From positions 690,001 to 722,000 of the forward strand of contig NZ_CP011035.1 in the NCBI RefSeq assembly GCF_001465295.1: DNA of 32,000 nucleotides, read 5' to 3'. This document shows, piece by piece, positions 1 through 16,214 of this stretch. A program made the translations under genes and the position numbers. The DNA is from Pseudoalteromonas translucida KMM 520. GTDB lineage: Bacteria; Pseudomonadota; Gammaproteobacteria; Enterobacterales; Alteromonadaceae. Within the stretch, counting starts at the first letter, position 1, and every line of letters begins with the position of its first letter. The notes beneath the pieces were generated by a model, which worked only from the letters and a program-made list of their open reading frames with translations, was not told the origin of the DNA and did no database searches.

Positions 1-1034
1 CCATCTTCGTTATAACGCGGGCGTCCTTTTAAAGCCGGAATTTGCGCGCCTAACCAAGCACCAGTAGAGTCCATCAAGTTACGGCCTACCTGATCGCTCG
101 AGTTAGCTAAACCTTTAGGGTGTTTGGCTGTTTTAGAGTTCAGCAAAATACGCGCTGATTCACATGCACTGGCAGCAAGAATTACCACATCAGCTGAGAG
201 AGTATGCTCAGTTACAGATTTTTTCTCAACATAGGTCACACCCGTTACTTTACCAGCGTCATTTACCGCGACAGATTTAACCATAGCGTCGGTAACAATT
301 TTTAAATTACCGGTCGCCATTGCCATAGGTAGTAGGGAAGTTGTGGTTTGAAAAGCAGCACCAATAGAGCAGCCGCTACCACAAGGTGTCGCATAAAAAC
401 ACGCCATGCGATCATCTTTATTACGTGTAAGTACGGCTCTGTGCATAGGGACTGCAGCAATACCTAATTTTTTAGCACTGGCTGCAATTAGTAACTCCGG
501 CACTCTGGGTGTTGGTGGCGGCTGTAAAACACCGGGTGCAGAAGGAGGCATATCGTCTAAACCTGTATTAGTTCCACAAATACCAACGAGTTCTTCAGTT
601 TTGTCATACCAAGGTGCAATATCTTCATACACAAACGGCCAATCGGCGCCTTGGCCGTCTTGACTCTTACCTTTAAAGTCGTGTTCACTAAAGCGCAACG
701 AATAGCGTCCCCAGTGATTGGTTCGCCCACCGAGCATACGTGCTCGCCACCAATAAAAATCGGTACCTTTGGCATTTGTGTAGGGCTCGTCTGGTACTTG
801 CCAACCACCATCTACGGTAGCATCGTAAAAACCAAAGCTTTTATCTTTAGTGCCTGCTCCCATTAGAGGGGCTTCGCTATTGCGGCGAAACATTGGGCTT
901 TCCGTTTTCGGATCGTAGTCTCTACCAGCTTCTAATAATAAAACTTTATGGCCCAGTTTAGTTAATGTATAAGCGGCCATTGCACCGCCAGCACCCGAAC
1001 CAACAACCAGTACTTTATGATCGAATTTAGACAT
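1..1034 (-). CDS. GMC-family FAD-dependent oxidoreductase, N-terminal ~344 aa; the 3' end runs off the window
   Basis: Absent from the ORF track because it is open at the window edge. My minus-strand translation from the ATG at 1034 reads MSKFDHKVLVVGSGAGGAMAAYTLTKLGHKVLLLEAGRDYDP...FYWWRARMLGGRTNHWGRYSLRF...ILAASACESARILLNS. It has a GxGxxG FAD Rossmann N-terminus and GMC / gluconate-2-dehydrogenase-flavoprotein-like blocks. It starts 2 nt after the stop of the upstream gene 1037..1729. Confidence 0.8.
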   Translation of the reverse strand, partial: MSKFDHKVLVVGSGAGGAMAAYTLTKLGHKVLLLEAGRDYDPKTESPMFRRNSEAPLMGAGTKDKSFGFYDATVDGGWQVPDEPYTNAKGTDFYWWRARMLGGRTNHWGRYSLRFSEHDFKGKSQDGQGADWPFVYEDIAPWYDKTEELVGICGTNTGLDDMPPSAPGVLQPPPTPRVPELLIAASAKKLGIAAVPMHRAVLTRNKDDRMACFYATPCGSGCSIGAAFQTTTSLLPMAMATGNLKIVTDAMVKSVAVNDAGKVTGVTYVEKKSVTEHTLSADVVILAASACESARILLNSKTAKHPKGLANSSDQVGRNLMDSTGAWLGAQIPALKGRPRYNED

Positions 1035-1036
1035 AG

Positions 1037-1729
1037 TTATAGCTCCTTAATTTTTATATTTTTAAACCAAACTTTGTCACCATGATCTTGCAGACCAATA
1101 TGCCCTTGCTCAGCCGTTGCAAAGTTTTCCCACGTAGCAAATTTACTATTGGCCACTAAGGTGTTCCAGGTAGTACTGCCAATTACAATACTGGTAGTGC
1201 TGATACCGTTTTGCCAGACCTGTAAGTGCATATCCTGCATGCGAATACGTACATGGTTCCAGTTATTTGCAAGTTTATGAGCTGCTTTTGGTGCTGCAAA
1301 AAGATCGTAAATAGAGCCAGATAAATGAGAATCTATTTTATTATCTGAGTGTTCTACATTATCTAAAATTTGAATTTCTGGCGCATGGGAATAGATCATA
1401 CTGCCAGTTTCGTCGGCTAATACAAAAATACCGCTGTTGCCTTTTGTAGAGATCTTCCAATCCATTTGTAATTCGTAGTCGCGGTACATTTTTTTAGTGA
1501 GAATATCGCCGCCACCTTGCGTTAGGGTCATGGCGTTATCTTCAATTTTCCATGCTGAGTTAACCGTGTCACTTTTAAAGTTACGCCACATAGACATATC
1601 TTTACCATTAAAAAGTGATTGCCAGCCGGCTTTTTGCTCTTCTATGGTTAGTTGGTTATCTGGTGTATGGGCATAAGCACAGCTACTAAAAGCCAGTGCA
1701 AGTGACAACATTTTGAATGATTTAAGCAT
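1037..1729 (-). CDS. Secreted DUF1080 (3-keto-disaccharide hydrolase family, PF06439-like) protein
   Basis: 230-aa ORF with a signal peptide, MLKSFKMLSLALAFSSCAYA. DUF1080 hallmarks are present: GWQSLFNGKDMSMW, GNSGIF, EIQILD, GHIGLQDHGDKVWFKNIKIKEL. Confidence 0.8.
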   Translation of the reverse strand: MLKSFKMLSLALAFSSCAYAHTPDNQLTIEEQKAGWQSLFNGKDMSMWRNFKSDTVNSAWKIEDNAMTLTQGGGDILTKKMYRDYELQMDWKISTKGNSGIFVLADETGSMIYSHAPEIQILDNVEHSDNKIDSHLSGSIYDLFAAPKAAHKLANNWNHVRIRMQDMHLQVWQNGISTTSIVIGSTTWNTLVANSKFATWENFATAEQGHIGLQDHGDKVWFKNIKIKEL

Positions 1730-1752
1730 AATGTAACCTCGTTTATTTATTT

Positions 1753-2982
1753 TTAATGGTTGCTAGACGCGTTTTTTAGCGTTTTATTTTTATTCATAAC
1801 CAGATGAAACCCAGCAAAAACCACAATTAATATAATAGGGAAAATAAGCAGGTTTCCTAACACTGTTTGCCCTGCTAATACTTGAGTTTGCTGCACCGTT
1901 AAGTTTGCCGCTTCGGCTTCTTTACTTGCGGCATCAATCCAATGACCGATTACCGGGTTCCACATGCTAACTGCAAACATGCCGGCACCGCCCATTAATG
2001 ACATACCCAAAGCGCCTGTTTTAGGGGCGAATTCTGCAACGCAGCCAAGCATGGTGGGCCAAAAGTAAGTGACGCCAACGGCAAACATTGCTGCTGCAAA
2101 GTAAATAGCGTTACCTTGCACTTGGCTCATTAAAAATATTCCTGCGGTTGCAAAGATTGCTGATCCAAGCAGTACCCCAGTTGGGCTAAAACGATGAACA
2201 ATTGGCCCTGCAAAAAATCTGCCTGTAGCCATAAGGCCAGTTATAAGCGCTAAAATCACCATAGGTGAAGCACCCGAAGAGCCTAAAATCTTTTCTATCC
2301 ATTGTTGTGTGCCAAACTCGGTAATGGCAGTCACTGTCATACAAACAATCAGGAATAAATACACAGGTGATAGTAGATTTTTTAGGTTTTTGCTGGTTGA
2401 GTTTACTTGCATATCAAACTGTGGAAACTGTGATTTGAGTATCATCACACCATATATAATGGTTGGAATAAGAATTAATGCCACTTGCCATTGCCAGTTT
2501 AATCCTACAGCAGTCATAGCGCTTGAAGCCAAAGCTCCAATTACGATGCCACCTGGAAACCAAACGTGAAAACGATTGAGCATAGTGGTGGTGTTTTTTG
2601 GAAACATTTGAGCAATTAGTGGGTTACAGCCAGCTTCAACAGAGCCATTAGCAAAACCAATTAAAAAGGTAGAGACTAACAATCCCCAAAATCCGTCTGC
2701 GGTAATGGTTAAAATGAGCCCAGCAAAGTGACAAACAAAAGCCAGTGCTACAAGTCGTTTAGCTCCAATAGCATTATATATAAAGCCGCCGACCATGGTG
2801 GCAACCGGGAAACCTAAAAAGGCCATGGCGTTAACCCAACCTAGCTGAGTGCTAGTAAGGCCAAACTGTTCACCTAGTTGGCCTAATATTCCGGCGCGGA
2901 TCGCAAATGTCATTGAGGTAACAATTAATGCAATACAGCAGAGCCTAAATACTAGGCGGTTGTTATTATTATTATCATTCAT
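1753..2982 (-). CDS. MFS transporter, probable sugar or sugar-derivative permease
   Basis: 409-aa ORF with about 12 hydrophobic segments and an MFS-like organisation. It lies 23 nt from the DUF1080 gene and 10 nt from the isomerase gene on the same strand. Confidence 0.8.
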   Translation of the reverse strand: MNDNNNNNRLVFRLCCIALIVTSMTFAIRAGILGQLGEQFGLTSTQLGWVNAMAFLGFPVATMVGGFIYNAIGAKRLVALAFVCHFAGLILTITADGFWGLLVSTFLIGFANGSVEAGCNPLIAQMFPKNTTTMLNRFHVWFPGGIVIGALASSAMTAVGLNWQWQVALILIPTIIYGVMILKSQFPQFDMQVNSTSKNLKNLLSPVYLFLIVCMTVTAITEFGTQQWIEKILGSSGASPMVILALITGLMATGRFFAGPIVHRFSPTGVLLGSAIFATAGIFLMSQVQGNAIYFAAAMFAVGVTYFWPTMLGCVAEFAPKTGALGMSLMGGAGMFAVSMWNPVIGHWIDAASKEAEAANLTVQQTQVLAGQTVLGNLLIFPIILIVVFAGFHLVMNKNKTLKNASSNH

Positions 2983-2992
2983 TAGCGATATC

Positions 2993-4048
2993 CTATTTAA
3001 TACCTAAAATGCGATTGTTACGTTGGGTATCTGTTTCAGCTCGACTAAAATCGTCGAATGCCTTATCAGTTGGGCGGATCAGATGGTGTTTAATAAATTC
3101 AGCCCCTTCTTTTGCGCCATCCTCTGGATGTTTAATACAACATTCCCACTCTAAAACAGCCCAGCCATCAAAGCCGTACTGAGTTAATTTGCTAAAAATA
3201 CTTTTAAAGTCAATTTGCCCATCACCTAAAGAGCGAAACCTTCCTGGGCGGTCTTGCCAGTTTTGATAGCCGCCATATACGCCAGAGCGACCGTTAGGAG
3301 TAAATTCGGCATCTTTAACATGAAATGCTTTTATCCGTTCATGGTAAATGTCTATAAATGCAAGGTAATCAAGTTGTTGAAGTACAAAATGACTAGGATC
3401 ATAAAGAATATTTACGCGCGGATGATTATTGGTTGCCGCTAAAAAGCGTTCAAACGAAACACCGTCATGTAAATCTTCACCAGGGTGAAGTTCAAAGCAC
3501 ACGTCCACACCCATTTCGTCAAAGCAATCTAGTATAGGCAGCCAACGTTTAGCTAATTCTGCAAACCCTTGTTCAACCAGTCCTTGTGGACGTTGCGGCC
3601 AAGGATAAAAAGTATGCCAAAGTAATGCCCCAGAAAAAGTTGCATGGGTTTTTAATCCCAACTTTTGGCTTGCTTTGGCTGCTAGCATTAATTGCTCTTT
3701 TGCCCATACGGTTCTTGCTGCGGGGTTACCTTTAACTGCTTGCGGCGCAAAATTATCGAACATTTCATCGTATGCTGGATGTACTGCGACTAACTGCCCT
3801 TGCAAGTGAGTCGACAACTCTGAAACTGTAAGCCCTGCGTCTGCTGCAATACCAGTTACTTCATCGCAGTATTGCTGGCTTTGAGCTGCTTTTTTTAAAT
3901 CAAATAGGTCAGAATTTGAAGTTGGCAGTTGAATTGCCTTATAACCTAAGTTACTCGCCCAGTGGCAAATGTCTTTAAAATTATTGAATGGCGGTTTATC
4001 TGAGATAAATTGTGCTAAAAATATCGCCGGTCCTTTTATTTCTTTCAT
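2993..4048 (-). CDS. Sugar phosphate isomerase/epimerase (xylose-isomerase-like TIM barrel) family protein
   Basis: The track ORF 2993..4162 overlaps the upstream gene. I place the start at Met39 (ATG at 4048, MKEIKGPAIFLAQF...), 7 nt after the upstream stop. The sequence is AP-endonuclease-2 / xylose-isomerase-like (FELHPGEDLHD, HVKDAEF, EWE). Confidence 0.8.
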   Translation of the reverse strand: MKEIKGPAIFLAQFISDKPPFNNFKDICHWASNLGYKAIQLPTSNSDLFDLKKAAQSQQYCDEVTGIAADAGLTVSELSTHLQGQLVAVHPAYDEMFDNFAPQAVKGNPAARTVWAKEQLMLAAKASQKLGLKTHATFSGALLWHTFYPWPQRPQGLVEQGFAELAKRWLPILDCFDEMGVDVCFELHPGEDLHDGVSFERFLAATNNHPRVNILYDPSHFVLQQLDYLAFIDIYHERIKAFHVKDAEFTPNGRSGVYGGYQNWQDRPGRFRSLGDGQIDFKSIFSKLTQYGFDGWAVLEWECCIKHPEDGAKEGAEFIKHHLIRPTDKAFDDFSRAETDTQRNNRILGIK

Positions 4049-4055
4049 TATTATT

Positions 4056-5216
4056 TTATCCAATTTTAAAAGTATGCCATTTGGTATCTTGTGCTGATGC
4101 AGACACCGCATTTTCAATAAATGCCATGCCACGAATTGCTTCATGAATACCGGGTACATCAAACTCGCTGTTTACTGTTGTCAGCCCTGATTTACTGGCT
4201 TGAACTTGCTTCGCAAAATTTACATAAATATTAGCGAACGCTTCAAGGTATCCCTCAGGGTGGCCTGCTGGAGTGCGTAATGCATTTGTGGCAGCGTTAC
4301 AAAGTGGGCCAACACCAGCGCGTAACAAAGTAGCTGGAGCGTTATGGCTTCTTAACCACAAGCTATTAGGCTCCATTTGTGACCATTCAATACTGGCCTT
4401 ATCGCCATATATACGCAGGGTAAGGTTGTTTTCTTCGCCCAAGGCAATTTGGCTGGCAATTAACACACCTTTACTGTGATTGTTAAAGCGTAGCAATACA
4501 GTGCCGTCATCATCGAGAGTTCTACCGGGGACAACGTGATTTAAATCAGCGCATAGTTCAGTAATTTCTAGGCCACTTACATATTCGGTTAAGTTGGCTG
4601 CATGGACCCCAATATCTCCCATGCAACAACTAATACCTGATTTGCTAGCATCTAAACGCCATTGTGCTTGCTTAGATGTTTCATCATCGCTATTGGCTAA
4701 CCAACCTTGGTTATATTCAACAATTATTTTACGAATATTGCCAAGCTCGCCATTGGCAATACGATGGCGAGCTTCTTTAACCATAGGGTAACCTGTGTAG
4801 GTGTGGGTAAGCCCGTATACAACATGACTACTATCTAGCTGTTTTTTTAGTGCTAACGCTTGTTCTAAATTAAGAGTAGCGGGCTTATCGGAAAGTATAT
4901 GAAAACCATATTGAATAGCGAGTTGTGCAATAGGAAAATGTAAATGGTTTGGCGTTACAATAGCGACAAAATCGATACGTTGATCTGCTGGTAATAATGA
5001 CTCTGCCTCAAACATGGCTTGATAACTTGCGTAGCAGCGAGCGGGATCTAAGCCAAGCATTTGTCCTGCAGCCATGCTCCGTGCTGAGTCTGAACTAAAA
5101 GCACCGGCCACTAACTCTATTAATCCATCTAAACGTGCTGCAATACGATGTACAGCCCCTATAAAAGCACCTTCGCCGCCGCCCACCATGCCCATACGTA
5201 TTTTGTTACTATTCAT
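4056..5216 (-). CDS. Gfo/Idh/MocA family NAD(P)-dependent oxidoreductase
   Basis: 386-aa ORF. The N-terminal Rossmann segment is IRMGMVGGGEGAFIGAVHRIAARLDG, followed by IVTPNHLHFPIA. An AAGGAG RBS lies 7 nt upstream of the ATG at 5216. It is the first gene of the operon. Confidence 0.88.
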   Translation of the reverse strand: MNSNKIRMGMVGGGEGAFIGAVHRIAARLDGLIELVAGAFSSDSARSMAAGQMLGLDPARCYASYQAMFEAESLLPADQRIDFVAIVTPNHLHFPIAQLAIQYGFHILSDKPATLNLEQALALKKQLDSSHVVYGLTHTYTGYPMVKEARHRIANGELGNIRKIIVEYNQGWLANSDDETSKQAQWRLDASKSGISCCMGDIGVHAANLTEYVSGLEITELCADLNHVVPGRTLDDDGTVLLRFNNHSKGVLIASQIALGEENNLTLRIYGDKASIEWSQMEPNSLWLRSHNAPATLLRAGVGPLCNAATNALRTPAGHPEGYLEAFANIYVNFAKQVQASKSGLTTVNSEFDVPGIHEAIRGMAFIENAVSASAQDTKWHTFKIG

Positions 5217-5275
5217 GGAAAAGCTCCTTTTAGTAAATAAGATTACTAAAGTAAGTTAAAAACATGTTATTTATA

Positions 5276-5339
5276 ATAGGGAAATGAAATGTTAAGTGAT
5301 AATAGTAATTCGGTTAACAATGAGACAAAATCGGCGTTT
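5276..5339 (-). promoter_or_regulatory. Conserved 64-nt cis element, copy A; predicted operator/promoter of the oxidoreductase operon
   Basis: The reverse complement is aaacgccgattttgtctcattgttaaccgaattactattatcacttaacatttcatttccctat. It matches 7905..7968 at 48/64 positions with no gaps. It points toward the ATG at 5216, 60 nt away, and lies 43 nt from the divergent araC-type ATG at 5382. Confidence 0.6.
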
Positions 5340-5381
5340 GCAAGATATAAATAAATACGCGTAGGGGCGCTAAATAGCACA

Positions 5382-6107
5382 ATGGATGAAGATAAAATTA
5401 TAACTAAAGCGGGTATACACCAATTAATAGCCGCATTTGACCTACTACCTGATATTTTGTTTTGGGTTAAAGATACGCAAAGTAGAATTTTACATTGCAA
5501 TCAACATTTTATTGAGCACCAAGGATTTAAGTCACTTGATCAAATTTTACTAAAAACTGATTTTGACTTTTCCCCAAAGCATCTGGCTTTTCAATATGTA
5601 AATGATGATAAACGGGTTATGCAGGGTCATGTTGTTACCGACAGACTTGAACTTAATCAAACACTAAGTGGTGAATTAGCGTGGTTTTCTACTTCTAAAC
5701 AGGTACTTAGAGGGGATAATGATACTATTTTAGGCACCTATGGCGTAACTCGTCACTTAGAAAAAACATCTAAAGCATTATCTCATGTTAGGGTAATTGA
5801 AGAGCCCGTTGAATACATCAGAAAATACTATCATCGTACAATAACTATTGATGAACTCGCTACATTAGCGCACCTTTCAGTAAGTGCATTAGAGCGGCGT
5901 TTTAAAAAACATCTAGCTAAAACGCCGAATCAATTTATTAACGAAATCCGCCTTGAAAATGCACGTAAGCTGTTAGTTGAAACACGCTTACCTATTTCAC
6001 AAATTGCCTATCAATGTGGTTTTTCGGAGCCGAGTTATTTTAGTAAGCAATTTAGGCGGTTGTTCGGTGAAATACCGTCTCAATTACGTAATAAAATAGA
6101 AGATTAA
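5382..6107 (+). CDS. AraC/XylS-family transcriptional regulator with an N-terminal PAS-like sensor domain
   Basis: 241-aa ORF. The C-terminus has the double HTH of AraC type (ITIDELATLAHLSVSALERRFKK...ISQIAYQCGFSEPSYFSKQFRRLFGEIPSQ). The N-terminus (DILFWVKDTQSRILHCNQHFIEHQGF...DDKRVMQG...W...GTYGVTR) looks like a PAS fold rather than a cupin. Confidence 0.85.
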   Translation: MDEDKIITKAGIHQLIAAFDLLPDILFWVKDTQSRILHCNQHFIEHQGFKSLDQILLKTDFDFSPKHLAFQYVNDDKRVMQGHVVTDRLELNQTLSGELAWFSTSKQVLRGDNDTILGTYGVTRHLEKTSKALSHVRVIEEPVEYIRKYYHRTITIDELATLAHLSVSALERRFKKHLAKTPNQFINEIRLENARKLLVETRLPISQIAYQCGFSEPSYFSKQFRRLFGEIPSQLRNKIED

Positions 6108-6988
6108 AGTATTTTATGGTTGTGTTTTGCTAATTGAATTGCACCTTGCTCAGGAGTCGATTTAGCTTTGCTAAGGTACTGTTGTGTTTGTGCAGTTAAC
6201 CAAGGCGTAATTTTTACTGCTGTACCACCGATTAAAGAAACCCTGGGGTAACCCATACTCACTAGGTGATCTACATAGCGGGTTATAAATTTAGCGGCAT
6301 ATTGTAAAAGTGATTTAGCATAGGGATCATCAGGCATAGAAAACACTAAAGGAGCAAAACTGGCAAAGTAAGCAGGCTTTGCTTTAAGTGCTATTTGAGT
6401 GATGTCGCTACTAGAGGTACAGTTAATTTGTGCTAAAAGCGCATTAATTAATGGGCTAGTTGGTAACAAACCATCGGTTACTTCTAACGCATAGCGAAAT
6501 AAGTTTAATCCTAACCATCCGCCACTTGCACCATCGCTTAACAGTAAGCCATAGCCACCAAAGTCTATGCATTTATTAGATTTTTTAGCTCCTGCACAAA
6601 ATCCAGTACCTAAAATAATTACGGCTCCAGGTTCATTAAAATGAGCCCCTTGGCAGGCAATATCTATGTCTGTGGTTAAGCTCAGTTCGGCAAATGGATG
6701 TTGCCAATCGCGCATTACTAGCATAGCGCTTTTTATATTCGCTCCAGCAAGTCCAGCGCAAGCCACAATGGATGATATTGCGGTGGTAGGTAAGTTTGCT
6801 TTGCTTAATACTGTATGTGTTGCTGCAATAATTGACTTTTGCGCCACCTCAATAGAAGTGGCAATATTTGCAGGCCCACTTATAGCTTCAGCTAATAGTT
6901 TACCTTGGGCATTTTCGAGCCTAACTTTACACTTTGTACCGCCACCGTCAATGCCTAAAAATAGCGCAGTAGATGTATTATCGTTCAT
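6104..6988 (-). CDS. BadF/BadG/BcrA/BcrD-type ATPase; N-acetylglucosamine-kinase-like sugar kinase
   Basis: 294-aa ORF. It has the ASKHA phosphate-1 motif LFLGIDGGGTKCK, plus ILGTGF and SLIGGTA. It resembles eukaryotic-type GlcNAc kinases. Its start overlaps the cutC stop by 11 nt. Confidence 0.75.
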   Translation of the reverse strand: MNDNTSTALFLGIDGGGTKCKVRLENAQGKLLAEAISGPANIATSIEVAQKSIIAATHTVLSKANLPTTAISSIVACAGLAGANIKSAMLVMRDWQHPFAELSLTTDIDIACQGAHFNEPGAVIILGTGFCAGAKKSNKCIDFGGYGLLLSDGASGGWLGLNLFRYALEVTDGLLPTSPLINALLAQINCTSSSDITQIALKAKPAYFASFAPLVFSMPDDPYAKSLLQYAAKFITRYVDHLVSMGYPRVSLIGGTAVKITPWLTAQTQQYLSKAKSTPEQGAIQLAKHNHKIL

Positions 6989-7718
6989 TCTTTTTTCCTA
7001 TTATTTCAGCAAGAGTGCGCACTGCTAAAGGATCTAAATACCCATCTTGTTTATATACAGCAGAGTGCACATGCAGCGAAACTTGATTATTGTTATGTGT
7101 TGCTATTTGCCACAGTTTAGCTGCATTACTGCAAGTAACTCCACCACCAATAACGACCTCTATTCGATTGTCAGCAAAGTTTATTAGCGTTTTTAAGTGT
7201 TGTATATTTTGTATTACGCTAGTGTTACTAAGCCACTTTGTTCCGTTAGTTAATACACGACTAATGCCAAGTTCTATGAATAAATTGAGAGCGTCTTGCC
7301 AGTTTTCAATACAATCGAATGCGCGATGAAAAGTAACACTGAGGTGATATTTTTGTGCATGTTTTACCAGTGTTCTAGTGGTTTTAATATCGAGTTTACC
7401 GTGACTAATAGCACCAAATACAACTCCTGTTGCACCTAACTTAGCCGCACTTTCAATTTGTTCTAACATAGTAGATAGCAGTGCTCTATCGACTTCAAAT
7501 AAATTGCTAATGGGTCTTATCATTACTAATAAGTCACCGTCATGTGGCATATTTTCACGGGCAACCTTAATCGCTGCAATGCTAGGAGTTAGGCCATCAA
7601 GATGCATGGCACTACACAGTTCTACTCTGCTTGCACCACAGGTAAATGCAATGTGAATATTACTAGCTAACTTATCAAGTTCATCTGCGCTTAAGCAGAT
7701 TTCCAAATTATTACGCAT
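6978..7718 (-). CDS. cutC: CutC-family (copper homeostasis protein CutC) TIM-barrel protein
   Basis: It aligns by eye with E. coli CutC: LEICLS.. vs LEICCYS, GASRVELCSA..GLTPS, VMIRP, VTFHRAFD, ISRVLTNG. I chose the start at Met23 of the track ORF (MRNNLEIC). Met18 at 7733 is also possible. Confidence 0.8.
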   Translation of the reverse strand: MRNNLEICLSADELDKLASNIHIAFTCGASRVELCSAMHLDGLTPSIAAIKVARENMPHDGDLLVMIRPISNLFEVDRALLSTMLEQIESAAKLGATGVVFGAISHGKLDIKTTRTLVKHAQKYHLSVTFHRAFDCIENWQDALNLFIELGISRVLTNGTKWLSNTSVIQNIQHLKTLINFADNRIEVVIGGGVTCSNAAKLWQIATHNNNQVSLHVHSAVYKQDGYLDPLAVRTLAEIIGKKNER

Positions 7719-7800
7719 TGTTGAGCCTATCATTTCTTTAAAAAATCCGATTAGCAAATAAATCGAAAAGTGAATGCTTATCAAAAATTGTAATATAAGA

Positions 7801-7830
7801 TATTTAAATCAAAGTATTACGATTTAAATA
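7801..7830. promoter_or_regulatory. Perfect 10-bp inverted repeat TATTTAAATC-N10-GATTTAAATA in the cutC / TBDR divergent region
   Basis: Read directly from the sequence. Arms are 7801-7810 and 7821-7830. It lies about 70-85 nt upstream of the cutC start. Confidence 0.4.
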
Positions 7831-7904
7831 GGTGTCGCTCAAAATAACAAACAGAGCATGGATACTATAAACCAGGTTGAGATTAATAAAATCTATTTAT
7901 TAGT

Positions 7905-7968
7905 AAACGCCGATTTTTTACTAGTGTTCACCGAAATACTATTATCACTTTTTGTACTGTATCCCTAT
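7905..7968 (+). promoter_or_regulatory. Conserved 64-nt cis element, copy B; predicted operator/promoter of the TonB-dependent receptor gene
   Basis: Sequence is aaacgccgattttttactagtgttcaccgaaatactattatcactttttgtactgtatccctat, 48/64 identical to the reverse complement of 5276..5339. Exact blocks are 13 nt (AAACGCCGATTTT) and 14 nt (TACTATTATCACTT). It points toward the ATG at 8091, 123 nt away. Confidence 0.6.
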
Positions 7969-8090
7969 CCTGAAACGCAGCTTAACAAAATGTTAACTCG
8001 TACAAAGCAAAGCTGTGGAAGTATATAACCTAAGCGTTAATTGCTGGCGAACACTATTTGACAACACTTATAATACTACTGGAGATAACA

Positions 8091-10919
8091 ATGGTTAATA
8101 ATAACAGTGGAAAAATAATAAAAAACGCCTCAGGATTTAAAAAACAGAGAACACACCGCTCTCCTGCATCTTTATTCAAAGCATCATTAATTAGTTGCGC
8201 TGTTTTAGGCGTGCTTTCATCTAATGTATATGCAGAAACGACTGATGAAGAAATTGAAGTAATCCAAGTAAGAGGAATTTACTCGAGTACAGCTAAAAAC
8301 TTATTGCTTAAGCGTACATCAAATTCTGTTGTTGATGCTATTACCGCTGAAGATGTGGGTAAGTTTCCAGATAAAAACATTGCAGATTCTCTTCAACGTG
8401 TATCAGGGGTAATGATTGACCGAAGTGGCGGTGAGGGAAACCGCGTTAGTATTCGTGGTACCTCATCAGACTGGACGTTAACTCAATTAAATGGCAACTA
8501 TATTGCCTCGTCAGATTCTGGCGTTCCATCGCGCAGTTTTAACTATGCTTTATTACCAGCAAATATGATTAGCAGTGTTGAGGTTTATAAAAGCCCCGAA
8601 GCACGAATAGATGAAGGCGGAATTGGTGGCACAGTCATTTTACACACGCGAAAACCGTTAGAAATGGAAGCTAATGAAGGCGTTGTTAGTGCCGAATTTA
8701 CTTATGCGGATGTTACTGAGAAAACAGAACCACAGCTTAACTTACTGTATTCATGGAAAAATCAAGAATCAACATTTGGTATTCTTGCTGGGTTTACACG
8801 ACAAGATAGAACAGTAAAAACGATTTCGAATGATGCGTTACATTGGCGATTACACTCAGATACAGTTGAAGGAGCAGAGCGTCCTGCAATAGTGGATCAG
8901 GCAACCGGGGAGGTTTACAATAATGTCTGGGCGCCTAGAGCTATGGTTGTCAATAATTCGACTCAAGATCGTACTCGTGATGGTTATCAGCTAGCAGTGC
9001 AGTGGACCCCGAGTGCAAATTTAGAGTTAAACCTAAATTATTTTGGGGCTAAAGTAGGCTACGATGAAGCCGGGCAAGGTATTACTTTTGCAGAGTGGAA
9101 CGATAACCATAATCCATATTTTGGTGTGCAATTAGACGGTGATACTGTTATTGGTTACGGCAATGCAGATAATGGCCTGCTCAATGATCAAAACTGGGGA
9201 GATGCCGATGTTAATAATGGTGTTGCTATACGCCGTGGTTTGTTATCGCCGCAATTAACAGGTCGTGAAAAAATTGGTGAATCAAATTCAGATACCTTTG
9301 ATTTTGAAGGGATCTACCATGGCGACACATTTACAGCATCTTTTAAAGTAGGTCGCACCCAAGCCGAGGGTGGTACCTCAAAAGAAACATACGCCAATAT
9401 AGATGCCCGTCAAGGCTCAGTAAATAGCTGGCATTGGTCAACGGTTGGTGGCAAGCCCAGTTACGACATTTCAACAGATCTGGCCTCGGATAAAAAAGCA
9501 TATCAATACTATGATTGGTTTGACTCATTCTCATCTGAAAATAAAGACACTGAAGATTACGTACAAACAGATATTAAGTTCGATGTAGACAGCAGTATAT
9601 TCACCACTATTTTCACAGGTGTTAAATATCGAGATCATCAAATTGAAGGCTTAAGAAATGACTTCCGATGGGATGATGGTATAGCTGATAACGGTGGTTA
9701 TCGTGGCTATTTACCAGGCACAGAATGGTTTCATAACCCTGACTTTCACCCAGATCCTGAGTCACTCGTTAGCGATAACGTGGTTGATAACAGTGCGGGT
9801 AATACAGGAGCATTTGATTTTCTTGCACTAGATTTTGCAGCAATGAATGCCTATCTTCTAAATAACTTCACTCAAACAGTGGTTCCTACTTTAGCGGGTA
9901 CTTATACGTTAGAAGAAAAAATATGGTCGGCTTATGCTCAGTCTAATTTTGAATGGCAAGATTTTAGAGGGAATATAGGTGTAAGATACGTTAAAACAGA
10001 TTTATCAACTCTTACTTACGATGATGTAATTGGTCAAGATGACGATAATATAACACCTAATAATCGCAGCAGTAATAACAGTGAGTTTTTACCTAGCTTT
10101 AACTTAGCATGGGATGCAAGTACTGATATTGTGGTTCGATTTGCTGCTGCACGTACTATGTCTCGAGTAAGTTATGCTGATTTGAGTCAAGCTGAGTCTT
10201 ATGGCCCGCCTGTAAATATTAACTCACCAGACTCATGGACAGGTAGAGGTACGGGGACAGCTGCTAATACTGGTTTAGAGCCTATGATATCAGATCAGTT
10301 TGATCTAGGATTTGAGTGGTATTACGGTGAGGGTTCGGCGCTAGGAGCGACTTTATTTACCAAAGATATTGCTAACTTGCCAATTTCCAGTGTAGAAATT
10401 GTGCAGCGTGAACATGCTTGTTGTAACGGCCCAATTGAGGTGGAAATGAACACCAAAGTTGGTGGCGGTGATGCAAGCTCTGACGGAGTAGAACTTTTCT
10501 TCCAGCACTCATTTGAAAGTGGCTTTGGTGTACTTGGAAACTACACATATACAGAAACCAGCAGTAGTAAAGTATCAACTGACGGCCAAGTAACTGAAGC
10601 TGAAATTCCGGGTACGGCTAAGCATCAATATAATCTTTCAGTTTACTTTGAAAATGATGACTTTAGTGTACGAGCATCTTATAACTGGAAGGACGACAGG
10701 GCTAATGGTATTCATCAAGGCTATAACTTATATACTAAAGCATACGGTCAATTAGATGTTAACGCTGGTTATAATATTAATGAAAGCCTTTCAATCACGG
10801 CCTCTATTGTTAATTTAACTGAAGAGCTTGAAGAAGGCTATTGGAAACAAAGTAACCGCTTTACTTATAATAAATATTCAGGCCGACGCTTTTACTTAGG
10901 TGCAAATTATAAATTTTAA
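8091..10919 (+). CDS. TonB-dependent outer-membrane receptor, carbohydrate/oligosaccharide-type
   Basis: The track ORF begins at TTG 8058. I prefer ATG 8091, which has a GGAGA RBS at 8081-8085. It has a signal peptide ending VYA and a plug domain (VVDAITAEDVGKFPDKNIADSLQRVSGV, NRVSIRG). A long beta-barrel ends ...RRFYLGANYKF. Confidence 0.9.
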   Translation: MVNNNSGKIIKNASGFKKQRTHRSPASLFKASLISCAVLGVLSSNVYAETTDEEIEVIQVRGIYSSTAKNLLLKRTSNSVVDAITAEDVGKFPDKNIADSLQRVSGVMIDRSGGEGNRVSIRGTSSDWTLTQLNGNYIASSDSGVPSRSFNYALLPANMISSVEVYKSPEARIDEGGIGGTVILHTRKPLEMEANEGVVSAEFTYADVTEKTEPQLNLLYSWKNQESTFGILAGFTRQDRTVKTISNDALHWRLHSDTVEGAERPAIVDQATGEVYNNVWAPRAMVVNNSTQDRTRDGYQLAVQWTPSANLELNLNYFGAKVGYDEAGQGITFAEWNDNHNPYFGVQLDGDTVIGYGNADNGLLNDQNWGDADVNNGVAIRRGLLSPQLTGREKIGESNSDTFDFEGIYHGDTFTASFKVGRTQAEGGTSKETYANIDARQGSVNSWHWSTVGGKPSYDISTDLASDKKAYQYYDWFDSFSSENKDTEDYVQTDIKFDVDSSIFTTIFTGVKYRDHQIEGLRNDFRWDDGIADNGGYRGYLPGTEWFHNPDFHPDPESLVSDNVVDNSAGNTGAFDFLALDFAAMNAYLLNNFTQTVVPTLAGTYTLEEKIWSAYAQSNFEWQDFRGNIGVRYVKTDLSTLTYDDVIGQDDDNITPNNRSSNNSEFLPSFNLAWDASTDIVVRFAAARTMSRVSYADLSQAESYGPPVNINSPDSWTGRGTGTAANTGLEPMISDQFDLGFEWYYGEGSALGATLFTKDIANLPISSVEIVQREHACCNGPIEVEMNTKVGGGDASSDGVELFFQHSFESGFGVLGNYTYTETSSSKVSTDGQVTEAEIPGTAKHQYNLSVYFENDDFSVRASYNWKDDRANGIHQGYNLYTKAYGQLDVNAGYNINESLSITASIVNLTEELEEGYWKQSNRFTYNKYSGRRFYLGANYKF

Positions 10920-15203: not shown

Positions 15204-16214
15204 ATGAAAGCTGCAATTAATAATGAATTTAAAGGTAAATTACAGATAATAGATATGCCTATCCCAGAGGTTGGCATAAATGATGTACTAGTAAAAATAG
15301 CGGCCTGTGGGGTATGTCATACCGATTTACATGCATGTCATGGCGATTGGCCTGTTGCACCTAAAATGCCTTTAGTACCGGGCCACGAAGGCGTAGGTGT
15401 AATTGAAAAGGTTGGTAGCAATATTAAACACCTAGAAGTAGGCGATCGCGTTGGTGTACCTTGGCTTTATAGTGCATGCGGGCATTGTGAGTATTGCTTA
15501 GATGGCAGAGAAACCCTGTGTTTGTCACAACATAATACCGGCTACTCTATAGATGGTAGTTACGCCGAATATTGTTTAGCACACGGTGACTACGTAGTAA
15601 AAATACCCGAAGGGCTTGGTTTTTCAGAAGCGGCGCCATTATTTTGCGCTGGAGTAACCACGTATAAAGCACTTAAAGTGTCAGGGGCTAAACCCGGGCA
15701 ATGGGTCGCTATCGTGGGAGTGGGCGGTCTTGGGCACTTAGCTGTACAGTATGCTAAAGCAATGGGGTTTAATGTTATAGCAGTTGATACCGGCAAAGAA
15801 AAACTAGCGCTGGCTAAAGAGCTTGGCGCAGACATTACCCTCGACTTTAAAGAAGTGGTCCCCAGCGAAGCCATTTTTGAACAAGTAGGCGGCGCGCATG
15901 CAGTCGTGTGTACTGCAGTTTCAAAGCCTGGTTTTGAGCAAGCTTATAAAAGTGTACGCCGTGGTGGTAAGTGTGTGTTAGTTGGTTTACCGCCAGAGGA
16001 TATGCCATTACCTATTTTTGACACAGTATTAAATGGTGTGTCAGTTGTGGGCTCTATTGTAGGTACTCGAAAAGATTTACAAGAGTGCTTAGAATTTGCA
16101 GCACAAGGTAAAGTAAAAGCAATTATTGAAGAAAAACGCTTAGAGGATATTAACGAAATTTTTGATGATATGCTTAAAGGCGAAATTAACGGTCGTATAG
16201 TTGTTACTATTTAA
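15204..16214 (+). CDS. adhP: Zinc-dependent alcohol dehydrogenase, AdhP-like
   Basis: MKAAINN..., the catalytic zinc motif [15 protein letters not shown], the structural zinc cluster [15 protein letters not shown] and the NAD site VGVGGLGH are all present. I prefer ATG 15204 over 15198 by alignment with the E. coli AdhP N-terminus MKAAV. Confidence 0.93.

Follow-up and report, generated by a model that had tools for sequence, protein, structure and literature searches.

A conserved intergenic module pairs a predicted operator of a PAS-AraC regulator with a sugar-oxidation-type operon and a TonB-dependent receptor gene in Pseudoalteromonas translucida and related marine bacteria

The window analyzed here is a stretch of 32,000 nucleotides (nt) from Pseudoalteromonas translucida KMM 520 (contig NZ_CP011035.1, positions 690,001 to 722,000), in which a 64-nt noncoding element occurs twice in inverted orientation, one copy facing an operon headed by a Gfo/Idh/MocA oxidoreductase gene and the other facing the gene of a TonB-dependent receptor. 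Comparison of these copies with each other and with their counterparts in related genomes makes it likely that the element serves the adjacent PAS-AraC regulator as its operator-promoter module, with control most likely positive. The elements and genes concerned are as follows (window coordinates).

5276 to 5339, minus strand: element copy A (64 nt), facing the Gfo/Idh/MocA operon
7905 to 7968, plus strand: element copy B (64 nt), facing the TonB-dependent receptor gene
5382 to 6107, plus strand: regulator of 241 amino acids (aa) with PAS_4 and AraC-type (HTH_18) domains, divergent from copy A and starting at an ATG 43 nt away from the operator's distal end
1 to 5216, minus strand: first target, the oxidoreductase operon
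8091 to 10919, plus strand: second target, TonB-dependent receptor of the TonB-Xanth-Caul subfamily, 942 aa

Results

A paired intergenic element in the window

The reverse complement of copy A aligns without gaps to copy B with 48 of 64 positions identical, and with 39 of 46 over the first 46 positions, which reproduces the hand count of the original prediction. The exact blocks it had listed, AAACGCCGATTTT and TACTATTATCACTT, together with a TCCCTAT end, are common to both copies. This pair (I1; 46 nt, 85%) ranks first among the inverted pairs of the window, the runner-up being 33 nt long with 76% identity. When a binomial tail is multiplied by the number of pair positions that the window offers, the chance of such a match comes to about 1e-7 (39/46) and about 4e-7 (48/64). 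A degenerate 46-nt consensus allowing up to 3 mismatches finds these two window sites only and none in 100 shuffles, and a weight matrix built only from sites of other genomes (80 sites) gives the copies scores of 60.1 and 45.2, with a next best window score of -25 and a shuffle maximum of -10. Neither the consensus nor the matrix found a further copy in the window, nor did a soft weight-matrix scan, run over the window and nine related loci, bring up weaker extra sites (for example, before the cutC-nagK-like pair, the DUF1080 gene, or the GMC gene); scores in these sequences are bimodal, the true sites lying at 38–66 and all else below 0.

Copy A is located between the minus-strand Gfo/Idh/MocA operon and the divergent regulator gene, and copy B between a minus-strand cutC-nagK-like gene pair and the plus-strand receptor gene. 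Each copy points toward its own downstream unit, as had been proposed, and the distances of 60 nt to ATG 5216 and 123 nt to ATG 8091 hold as coordinate differences (5276 - 5216 and 8091 - 7968).

Distribution of the module across genomes

Orthologous loci, with regulator homologues at 82, 81, 75, 69, 61, 58, and 57% identity, came from Pseudoalteromonas, Thalassotalea, Fluctibacter/Aestuariibacter, Alteromonas, and Saccharobesus. In all of those fetched, the regulator gene is divergent from a Gfo-AP_endonuc_2-MFS operon and the intergenic module faces Gfo; where a TonB-dependent receptor gene adjoins, it has its own copy of the module. Phylogenetic footprinting of the orthologous intergenic regions, a check suggested with the original prediction, therefore recovers the module in every locus fetched, down to the most distant regulator.

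A scan of one genome per species (185,579 species) with the strict 38-nt pattern ACGCCGAWWWWNTNNYANNNNNNACCGANNNNNTRWTA, for which about 0.5 chance matches were estimated, returned 96 stretches holding 113 sites in 79 genomes, with a single site in 47 genomes, two in 30, and three in 2. The source species is absent among these matches; its own count rests on the 32-kb window, and the complete scans are those of the 79 other species. The matching taxa are Pseudoalteromonas, Colwellia, Cognaticolwellia, Thalassotalea, Alteromonas, Glaciecola, Aliiglaciecola, Shewanella, Neptunicella, Ningiella, Fluctibacter, other Alteromonadaceae, and Kangiellaceae, and none falls outside Alteromonadales-type genera or Kangiellaceae. 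The strict pattern undercounts sites, and Shewanella sp. D64, which has the same arrangement with a distal box CGCTGA, was missed by it.

Where an open reading frame (ORF) could be read downstream in the orientation of the motif, it was nearly always a homologue of Gfo, AP_endonuc_2, DUF1080, or the receptor. The few other contexts are thematically the same and comprise a secreted AP_endonuc_2 protein with a sugar porter, CE2/GDSL carbohydrate esterases, 1,135-aa DUF1080-cytochrome c proteins, a Gluconate_2-dh3 and GMC pair, and further receptors. Sites before receptor genes and before oxidoreductase-operon genes across genomes lend support to the earlier proposal of a small regulon that would join outer-membrane uptake to oxidoreductases.

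Anatomy of the predicted operator

Among 82 non-redundant sites, the element contains two direct-repeat half-sites of 14 base pairs (bp), CCGA-N5-T-N2-Y-A, at element positions 6–19 and 27–40, with a spacing of exactly 21 bp. The same plan is present in 13 distinct sites reached through protein homology with a looser expression. The 21-bp phasing of CGCCGA and (A/C)ACCGA, first noticed in the window, is correct there and invariant across at least 13 genera. Columns 31–34, which the search pattern leaves free (W, T 0.85, T 0.90, T 0.67), repeat the composition of columns 10–13, and this mirroring confirms the direct repeat at the level of sequence composition. Aligning the sites across genomes refined the operator (element positions 3–40) to the following intervals.

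5300 to 5337, minus strand: operator, copy A
5331 to 5334 (CCGA) and 5321 to 5325 (TCTCA), minus strand: distal half-site, copy A
5310 to 5313 (CCGA) and 5300 to 5304 (TATTA), minus strand: proximal half-site, copy A, 21 bp from the distal one
7907 to 7944, plus strand: operator, copy B
7910 to 7913 (CCGA) and 7919 to 7923 (TACTA), plus strand: distal half-site, copy B
7931 to 7934 (CCGA) and 7940 to 7944 (TATTA), plus strand: proximal half-site, copy B

Two bipartite direct-repeat half-sites, with boxes about one helical turn apart and a periodicity of about 21 bp, are what is expected of a class II site of the AraC/XylS type.

Predicted promoter and sign of control

Downstream of the operator, a TAnnnT hexamer begins at element position 62 in 36 sites and at position 63 in 37, that is, in 73 of the 82 non-redundant sites, neighboring positions having 0–2 sites each. 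This hexamer lies entirely outside the search pattern, and its interior letters vary (TATTAT in 17 sites, TATAGT in 11, TATTCT in 10, TATGCT in 6, TACACT in 5, and others), a combination that, judged from the alignment, is the signature of a genuine -10 element. Element positions 38–43 read TTAnCA (TTATCA, TTAACC, ATAACA, and others), with C at position 42, also a column outside the search pattern, in 96% of the sites; this stretch overlaps box B of the proximal half-site at 36–40 and looks like a weak -35. With the -10 at 62–67, transcription would start near element position 74, placing the operator at about -71 to -34. The putative promoter thus also has the proximal half-site overlapping the -35 and a fixed register to the -10, as in class II sites. 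The corresponding hexamers in the window are listed below.

5297 to 5302, minus strand: -35-like hexamer TTATCA, copy A, overlapping the proximal half-site and containing the 96%-conserved C42
5273 to 5278, minus strand: putative -10 TATTAT of the oxidoreductase-operon promoter (element 62–67), predicted start about 5266, leader about 50 nt
7942 to 7947, plus strand: -35-like hexamer TTATCA, copy B, overlapping the proximal half-site
7966 to 7971, plus strand: putative -10 TATCCT of the receptor promoter (element 62–67), predicted start about 7978, leader about 113 nt

One proposal of the original prediction has to be revised here, namely that the TATTAT inside the second conserved block is the -10. 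That hexamer, at element positions 36–41, belongs to box B of the proximal half-site, and the conserved -10 is the TAnnnT at 62/63, which corresponds to the TCCCTAT block. As a -10 the hexamer was rejected: position 41 is T in only about 35% of the sites, and TAnnnT occurs there in 28 of 82 versus 73 of 82 at 62/63.

The position of the -10 bears directly on the sign of control. The same site and regulator could act negatively, the protein repressing a promoter made of this TATTAT and a -35 in the TTTTGT region until an inducer releases it. A promoter scan does list TTGTCT-18-TATTAT and TTTACT-17-TATTAT inside both copies, and both window copies carry TATTAT at 36–41. The poor conservation of that hexamer across the 82 sites speaks against repression, as does the register between operator and downstream -10, which is constant to within 1 bp across many genera and is needed for activation but not for repression. 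Sugar-catabolic AraC-family proteins are, moreover, mostly activators. Taken together, these points make repression improbable, although it is the best of the alternatives to positive control by the PAS-AraC protein.

A CTGAA-like stretch is often conserved 3' of the -10 at element positions 66–73 (7970–7977 in the window, and in related loci), reading TATCCTGAAAC, TATTCTGAACGAG, TACACTGAA, or TATACTGAAT. It may be a discriminator, a start-site preference, or the beginning of a conserved leader.

The PAS-AraC regulator

The identification of the gene at 5382–6107 as a PAS-AraC regulator was confirmed by domain searches. The C-terminal domain matches HTH_18 with 94 bits (cut-off 33.6) and HTH_AraC with 60.9 bits, showing the double helix-turn-helix of the AraC/XylS family, and residues 133–238 match AraC-type DNA-binding domains in the PDB. 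The N terminus matches PAS_4 with 39 bits and is not the cupin of classical AraC or a XylS-type N-terminal domain. An AlphaFold2 model (predicted local distance difference test score of 85) shows a five-stranded PAS fold followed by a seven-helix AraC DNA-binding domain, whose helices superpose on the DNA-binding domains of AraC, SoxS, and AdpA with target-normalized template modeling (TM) scores of 0.8–0.9. No PDB sequence match and no Foldseek match paired a PAS domain with an AraC-type DNA-binding domain. The protein is therefore a domain-architecture variant within the AraC/XylS family. The nearest full-length structural analogue is VqmA of Vibrio, which likewise has an N-terminal ligand-binding PAS domain and a C-terminal DNA-binding domain but differs in its LuxR-type helix-turn-helix and palindromic site; with a TM score of about 0.45 and an identity of about 18%, the likeness is one of architecture and not of family.

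Of 124 site instances, 101 have a regulator homologue within their 8-kb block, in most cases encoded on the other strand at a distance of 42–120 nt from the distal end of the site. This co-localization, together with the architecture of the site, supports the earlier suggestion that the element is the operator and promoter of the adjacent gene. Both recognition helices (S166-x-SALERRF174 and S218-Y-F220) are invariant in 50 homologues of 55–83% identity, and their invariance, in step with that of the operator, was counted as support for the pairing of this regulator with this operator.

An alternative is that a different transcription factor, whose gene lies elsewhere, uses the motif as its operator and that the PAS-AraC gene is a mere neighbor. 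In its favor, a regulator gene is missing from the 8-kb block of some sites, namely receptor promoters and Glaciecola or Ningiella esterase operons. We regard this alternative as very unlikely. The regulator gene abuts the motif at nearly every Gfo-type site in at least 13 genera, the taxonomic range of the motif is that of the regulator family, and the recognition helices are as invariant as the motif. Sugar regulators of the LacI, GntR, and ROK families use palindromes, which also counts against such a factor. Direct repeats of 21 bp with two boxes per half-site are, on the other hand, typical of AraC/XylS proteins (for XylS, see PMC5481539).

Repeat, peptide, and RNA explanations

Two further explanations, each scarcely credible, concern the nature of the element itself. 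The first is a dispersed repeat (of the repetitive extragenic palindrome (REP) or miniature inverted-repeat transposable element (MITE) kind) or a recently duplicated promoter fragment, without a specific regulatory role. An inverted pair 2.6 kb apart might suggest this; however, the element is present in 1–3 copies per genome in 79 genomes and in none outside these taxa, always before one functional gene set, the window holds no further copies, and the blocks are conserved with divergent spacers and persist across genera. A REP/MITE identity was rejected on copy number and promoter context, and the strand folds no better than shuffles. Scattering across the genome without relation to gene starts, which the original prediction had named as evidence that would overturn it, was looked for in this way, and what was found instead were the few promoter sites per genome, before oxidoreductase-operon genes or receptors, that a small regulon would have.

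The second is that the conserved sequence encodes small peptides or a structured RNA. Two ORFs with similar translations (...NADFVSLLTELLLSL... and ...NADFLLVFTEILLSL...) do exist over the element, as noticed originally, and several public assemblies annotate the 56-codon one, which covers copy B, as a gene. The greater share of the conserved sequence, however, is situated upstream of the conserved -10. The small peptide was rejected, an in-frame ATG upstream being absent in 89 of 106 distinct sites and the "NADF" frame running from 9 to 92 codons stop to stop; this lack of a conserved reading frame among the 106 sites bears out the earlier view that the constraint acts on DNA and not on protein. 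A structured RNA was rejected as well, folding energies being no better than those of shuffles on either strand (z from -0.5 to +0.8) and no match to the element appearing in an Rfam search of positions 5000–8300, whose sole match was a chance small nucleolar RNA (E = 0.74) inside the regulator gene.

The 56-codon ORF itself (7858–8028, plus strand) is called as a gene in the related loci L002, L003, L004, and L006 and has no Pfam match; these calls almost certainly mistake a promoter sequence for a gene.

Genes of the oxidoreductase operon

The operon facing copy A was resolved into the following genes, all on the minus strand.

4056 to 5216, minus strand: Gfo/Idh/MocA oxidoreductase
2993 to 4048, minus strand: xylose-isomerase-like TIM barrel protein (AP_endonuc_2)
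1753 to 2982, minus strand: MFS transporter
1037 to 1729, minus strand: protein of the DUF1080 3-keto-disaccharide-hydrolase family
3 to 1034, minus strand: GMC oxidoreductase, truncated by the start of the window

The operon of sister strains extends further, to genes for a Gluconate_2-dh3 small subunit carrying a twin-arginine translocation (Tat) signal and for a second, secreted AP_endonuc_2 protein. The small subunit has the Tat motif SRRESLK, and signal peptides are present on the DUF1080 protein and the second AP_endonuc_2 protein; none was found on Gfo or on the first AP_endonuc_2 protein. Because of this distribution, the operon appears to mix periplasmic and cytoplasmic enzymes, which bears out what had been proposed for the oxidoreductase unit. 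Pfam matches in the regulated genes are 3keto-disac_hyd (163 bits), GMC_oxred, Gluconate_2-dh3, GFO_IDH_MocA, and AP_endonuc_2.

The second gene had been delimited mechanically as an ORF at 2993–4162 (minus strand), with a TTG start at 4162 and hence an overlap of about 100 nt with the 3' end of Gfo. Judging by the gene calls of related loci and by homology alignment, its real start is ATG 4048 (351 aa).

Discussion

The arrangement described above makes it likely that each copy of the element is a complete sigma-70 promoter that depends on an activator, the adjacent PAS-AraC regulator, for which it carries a bipartite operator. The half-sites, 21 bp apart, would be bound head to tail by two monomers of the regulator, probably dimerized through their PAS domains; the boxes of each half-site, about one helical turn apart, fit the pair of helix-turn-helix motifs found in AraC-type domains. 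The proximal half-site would overlap the weak -35 (TTAnCA), itself 18–19 bp upstream of the TAnnnT -10, which puts the operator at about -71 to -34; once bound there, the regulator would touch RNA polymerase and turn on the promoter by class II activation. A sugar or keto-sugar bound by the PAS domain is the likely trigger. Since the operator begins 43 nt from the start codon of the regulator gene, autoregulation is probable as well.

This layout has well-known precedents. At pBAD of E. coli, AraC uses the direct-repeat half-sites araI1-I2, spaced 21 bp center to center with the proximal one overlapping the -35, and the araC gene is divergently transcribed and autoregulated next to a sugar-catabolic operon. 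The module described here shares with it the 21-bp direct repeats, the -35 overlap, the divergent regulator gene, and the sugar-catabolic operon. It differs in that a distant O2-like site or looping is without support here, in that the N-terminal domain is a PAS fold and not the arabinose-binding cupin of AraC, and in that the module also drives a TonB-dependent receptor gene. At Pm of the Pseudomonas putida TOL plasmid, the XylS site likewise consists of a pair of homologous direct repeats, and within each repeat a short spacer separates box A on the 5' side from box B on the 3' side; one XylS monomer occupies the proximal repeat first and a second one the distal repeat, after which they contact RNA polymerase (PMC5481539). 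The XylS boxes are TGCA-N6-GGNTA, as opposed to CCGA-N5-TnnYA here; in place of a XylS/AraC-type N-terminal domain, the regulator here has a PAS effector domain of about 125 residues, and the targets are sugar-oxidation and uptake genes instead of genes for aromatic catabolism.

As for the physiology, the regulon would pair TonB-dependent outer-membrane uptake with a periplasmic set (a Tat-exported GMC dehydrogenase, a DUF1080 protein of the 3-keto-glycoside-hydrolase family, and a secreted AP_endonuc_2 protein) and a cytoplasmic set (an MFS importer, a Gfo/Idh/MocA oxidoreductase, and a xylose-isomerase-like protein). By family membership, this content resembles a 3-keto-glycoside catabolic route. 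DUF1080 proteins have been described as 3-keto-disaccharide hydrolases, and the GMC-type LacABC as a glucoside 3-dehydrogenase (PMC8121099). The Bacteroides BT2156-2160 and Caulobacter LacABC clusters have enzyme families in common with the regulon, namely a DUF1080 member of the 3-keto-disaccharide hydrolase family, Gfo/MviM-like dehydrogenases, an IolE-like or xylose-isomerase-like protein, and a GMC-type periplasmic dehydrogenase (PMC8121099). The regulator of the Bacteroides cluster belongs to the SusR family, unlike the PAS-AraC protein here.

Several points weigh against this interpretation as a whole. Binding by the regulator is deduced only from co-localization, co-conserved recognition helices, and site architecture, and the -35 and start site only from consensus and conservation; the -35/-10 spacer of 18–19 bp is longer than optimal. 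The strict search pattern fixes many columns, so that invariance there is partly built in, which is partly offset because T15, A19, T36, and A40 are invariant already among the 13 sites reached with the looser expression. Gfo homologues sought as an out-group control gave 120 listed matches that were all from Alteromonadales, at 65% identity or more, and these provided no out-group locus. On the metabolic side, the enzymes score far below the curated cut-offs of named families in NCBIfam, with 97.7 versus 650 for levoglucosan dehydrogenase and 32 versus 750 for the glycoside 3-dehydrogenase BT_2158_fam.

The element pair is a solid but conventional regulon prediction that brings no new regulatory principle. 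The principle is a textbook one, and what is new is the specific operator, the PAS-AraC protein to which it is assigned, and the Alteromonadales regulon outlined here. A literature search on this regulator, motif, or regulon returned nothing specific, but it did not cover regulon databases such as RegPrecise, so that a prior computational description is possible. Going further, we tentatively suggest, with the balance tipped slightly against it, that the protein represents an undescribed AraC subfamily with a PAS sensor whose CCGA-N5-TnnYA 21-bp operator delimits an Alteromonadales "oxidative glycoside catabolism" regulon. If so, this regulon would couple TonB-dependent uptake to C3-oxidation and hydrolysis in the periplasm and to reduction or isomerization in the cytoplasm, the effector could be a 3-keto sugar, and the motif would be a genomic tag for the substrates and functions of the widespread but little-understood Gfo/Idh/MocA, xylose-isomerase-like, DUF1080, and GMC clusters in marine heterotrophs. 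The analysis yields a precise and testable operator and promoter map for an uncharacterized regulator conserved in at least 79 marine species, and it links receptors and accessory enzymes (CE2 esterases, DUF1080-cytochrome c proteins, and sugar porters) to a widespread sugar-oxidation cluster. The motif may be used for annotating regulon members across Alteromonadales and for designing reporter and inducer screens toward the substrate.

The related loci also contain variations on the arrangement of the window. Sister strains with an identical regulator have, between the first receptor gene and minE, a second TonB-dependent receptor (995 aa, 36% identical to that of the window) and an F5/F8 type C domain protein, both absent from the window and from locus L005. 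A third copy of the element precedes this second receptor gene.

15784 to 15826 of locus L002, plus strand: third element copy, before the second receptor; likewise in L003, L004, and L006
15783 to 15825 of locus L001: third element copy, with CGCTGA in place of CGCCGA in the distal box

The cutC-like and nagK-like (BadF/BadG ATPase) genes of the window (6104–7733, minus strand) overlap by 11 nt and are called as one 537-aa fusion in GCA_015864415.1 (L001, 10723–12336). The pair is absent from several orthologous loci (L008 and L010), and no copy of the motif faces it.

In Glaciecola siphonariae (L094), a single divergent intergenic region holds two module copies, at 5342 (minus strand) and 5464 (plus strand), arranged back to back at a distance of 122 nt. 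One precedes a CE2 esterase/DUF1080 operon and the other a secreted AP_endonuc_2/sugar porter operon, and that 8-kb block contains no regulator gene. In Colwellia sp. MB3u-45 (L100, 3600–6300), the motif precedes a receptor gene followed by genes for two FAD-type proteins (N terminus GGGTAGWM) and a GMC oxidoreductase, a gene content unlike that of the regulon in the window; the two FAD-type proteins may resemble tryptophan-halogenase-like proteins.

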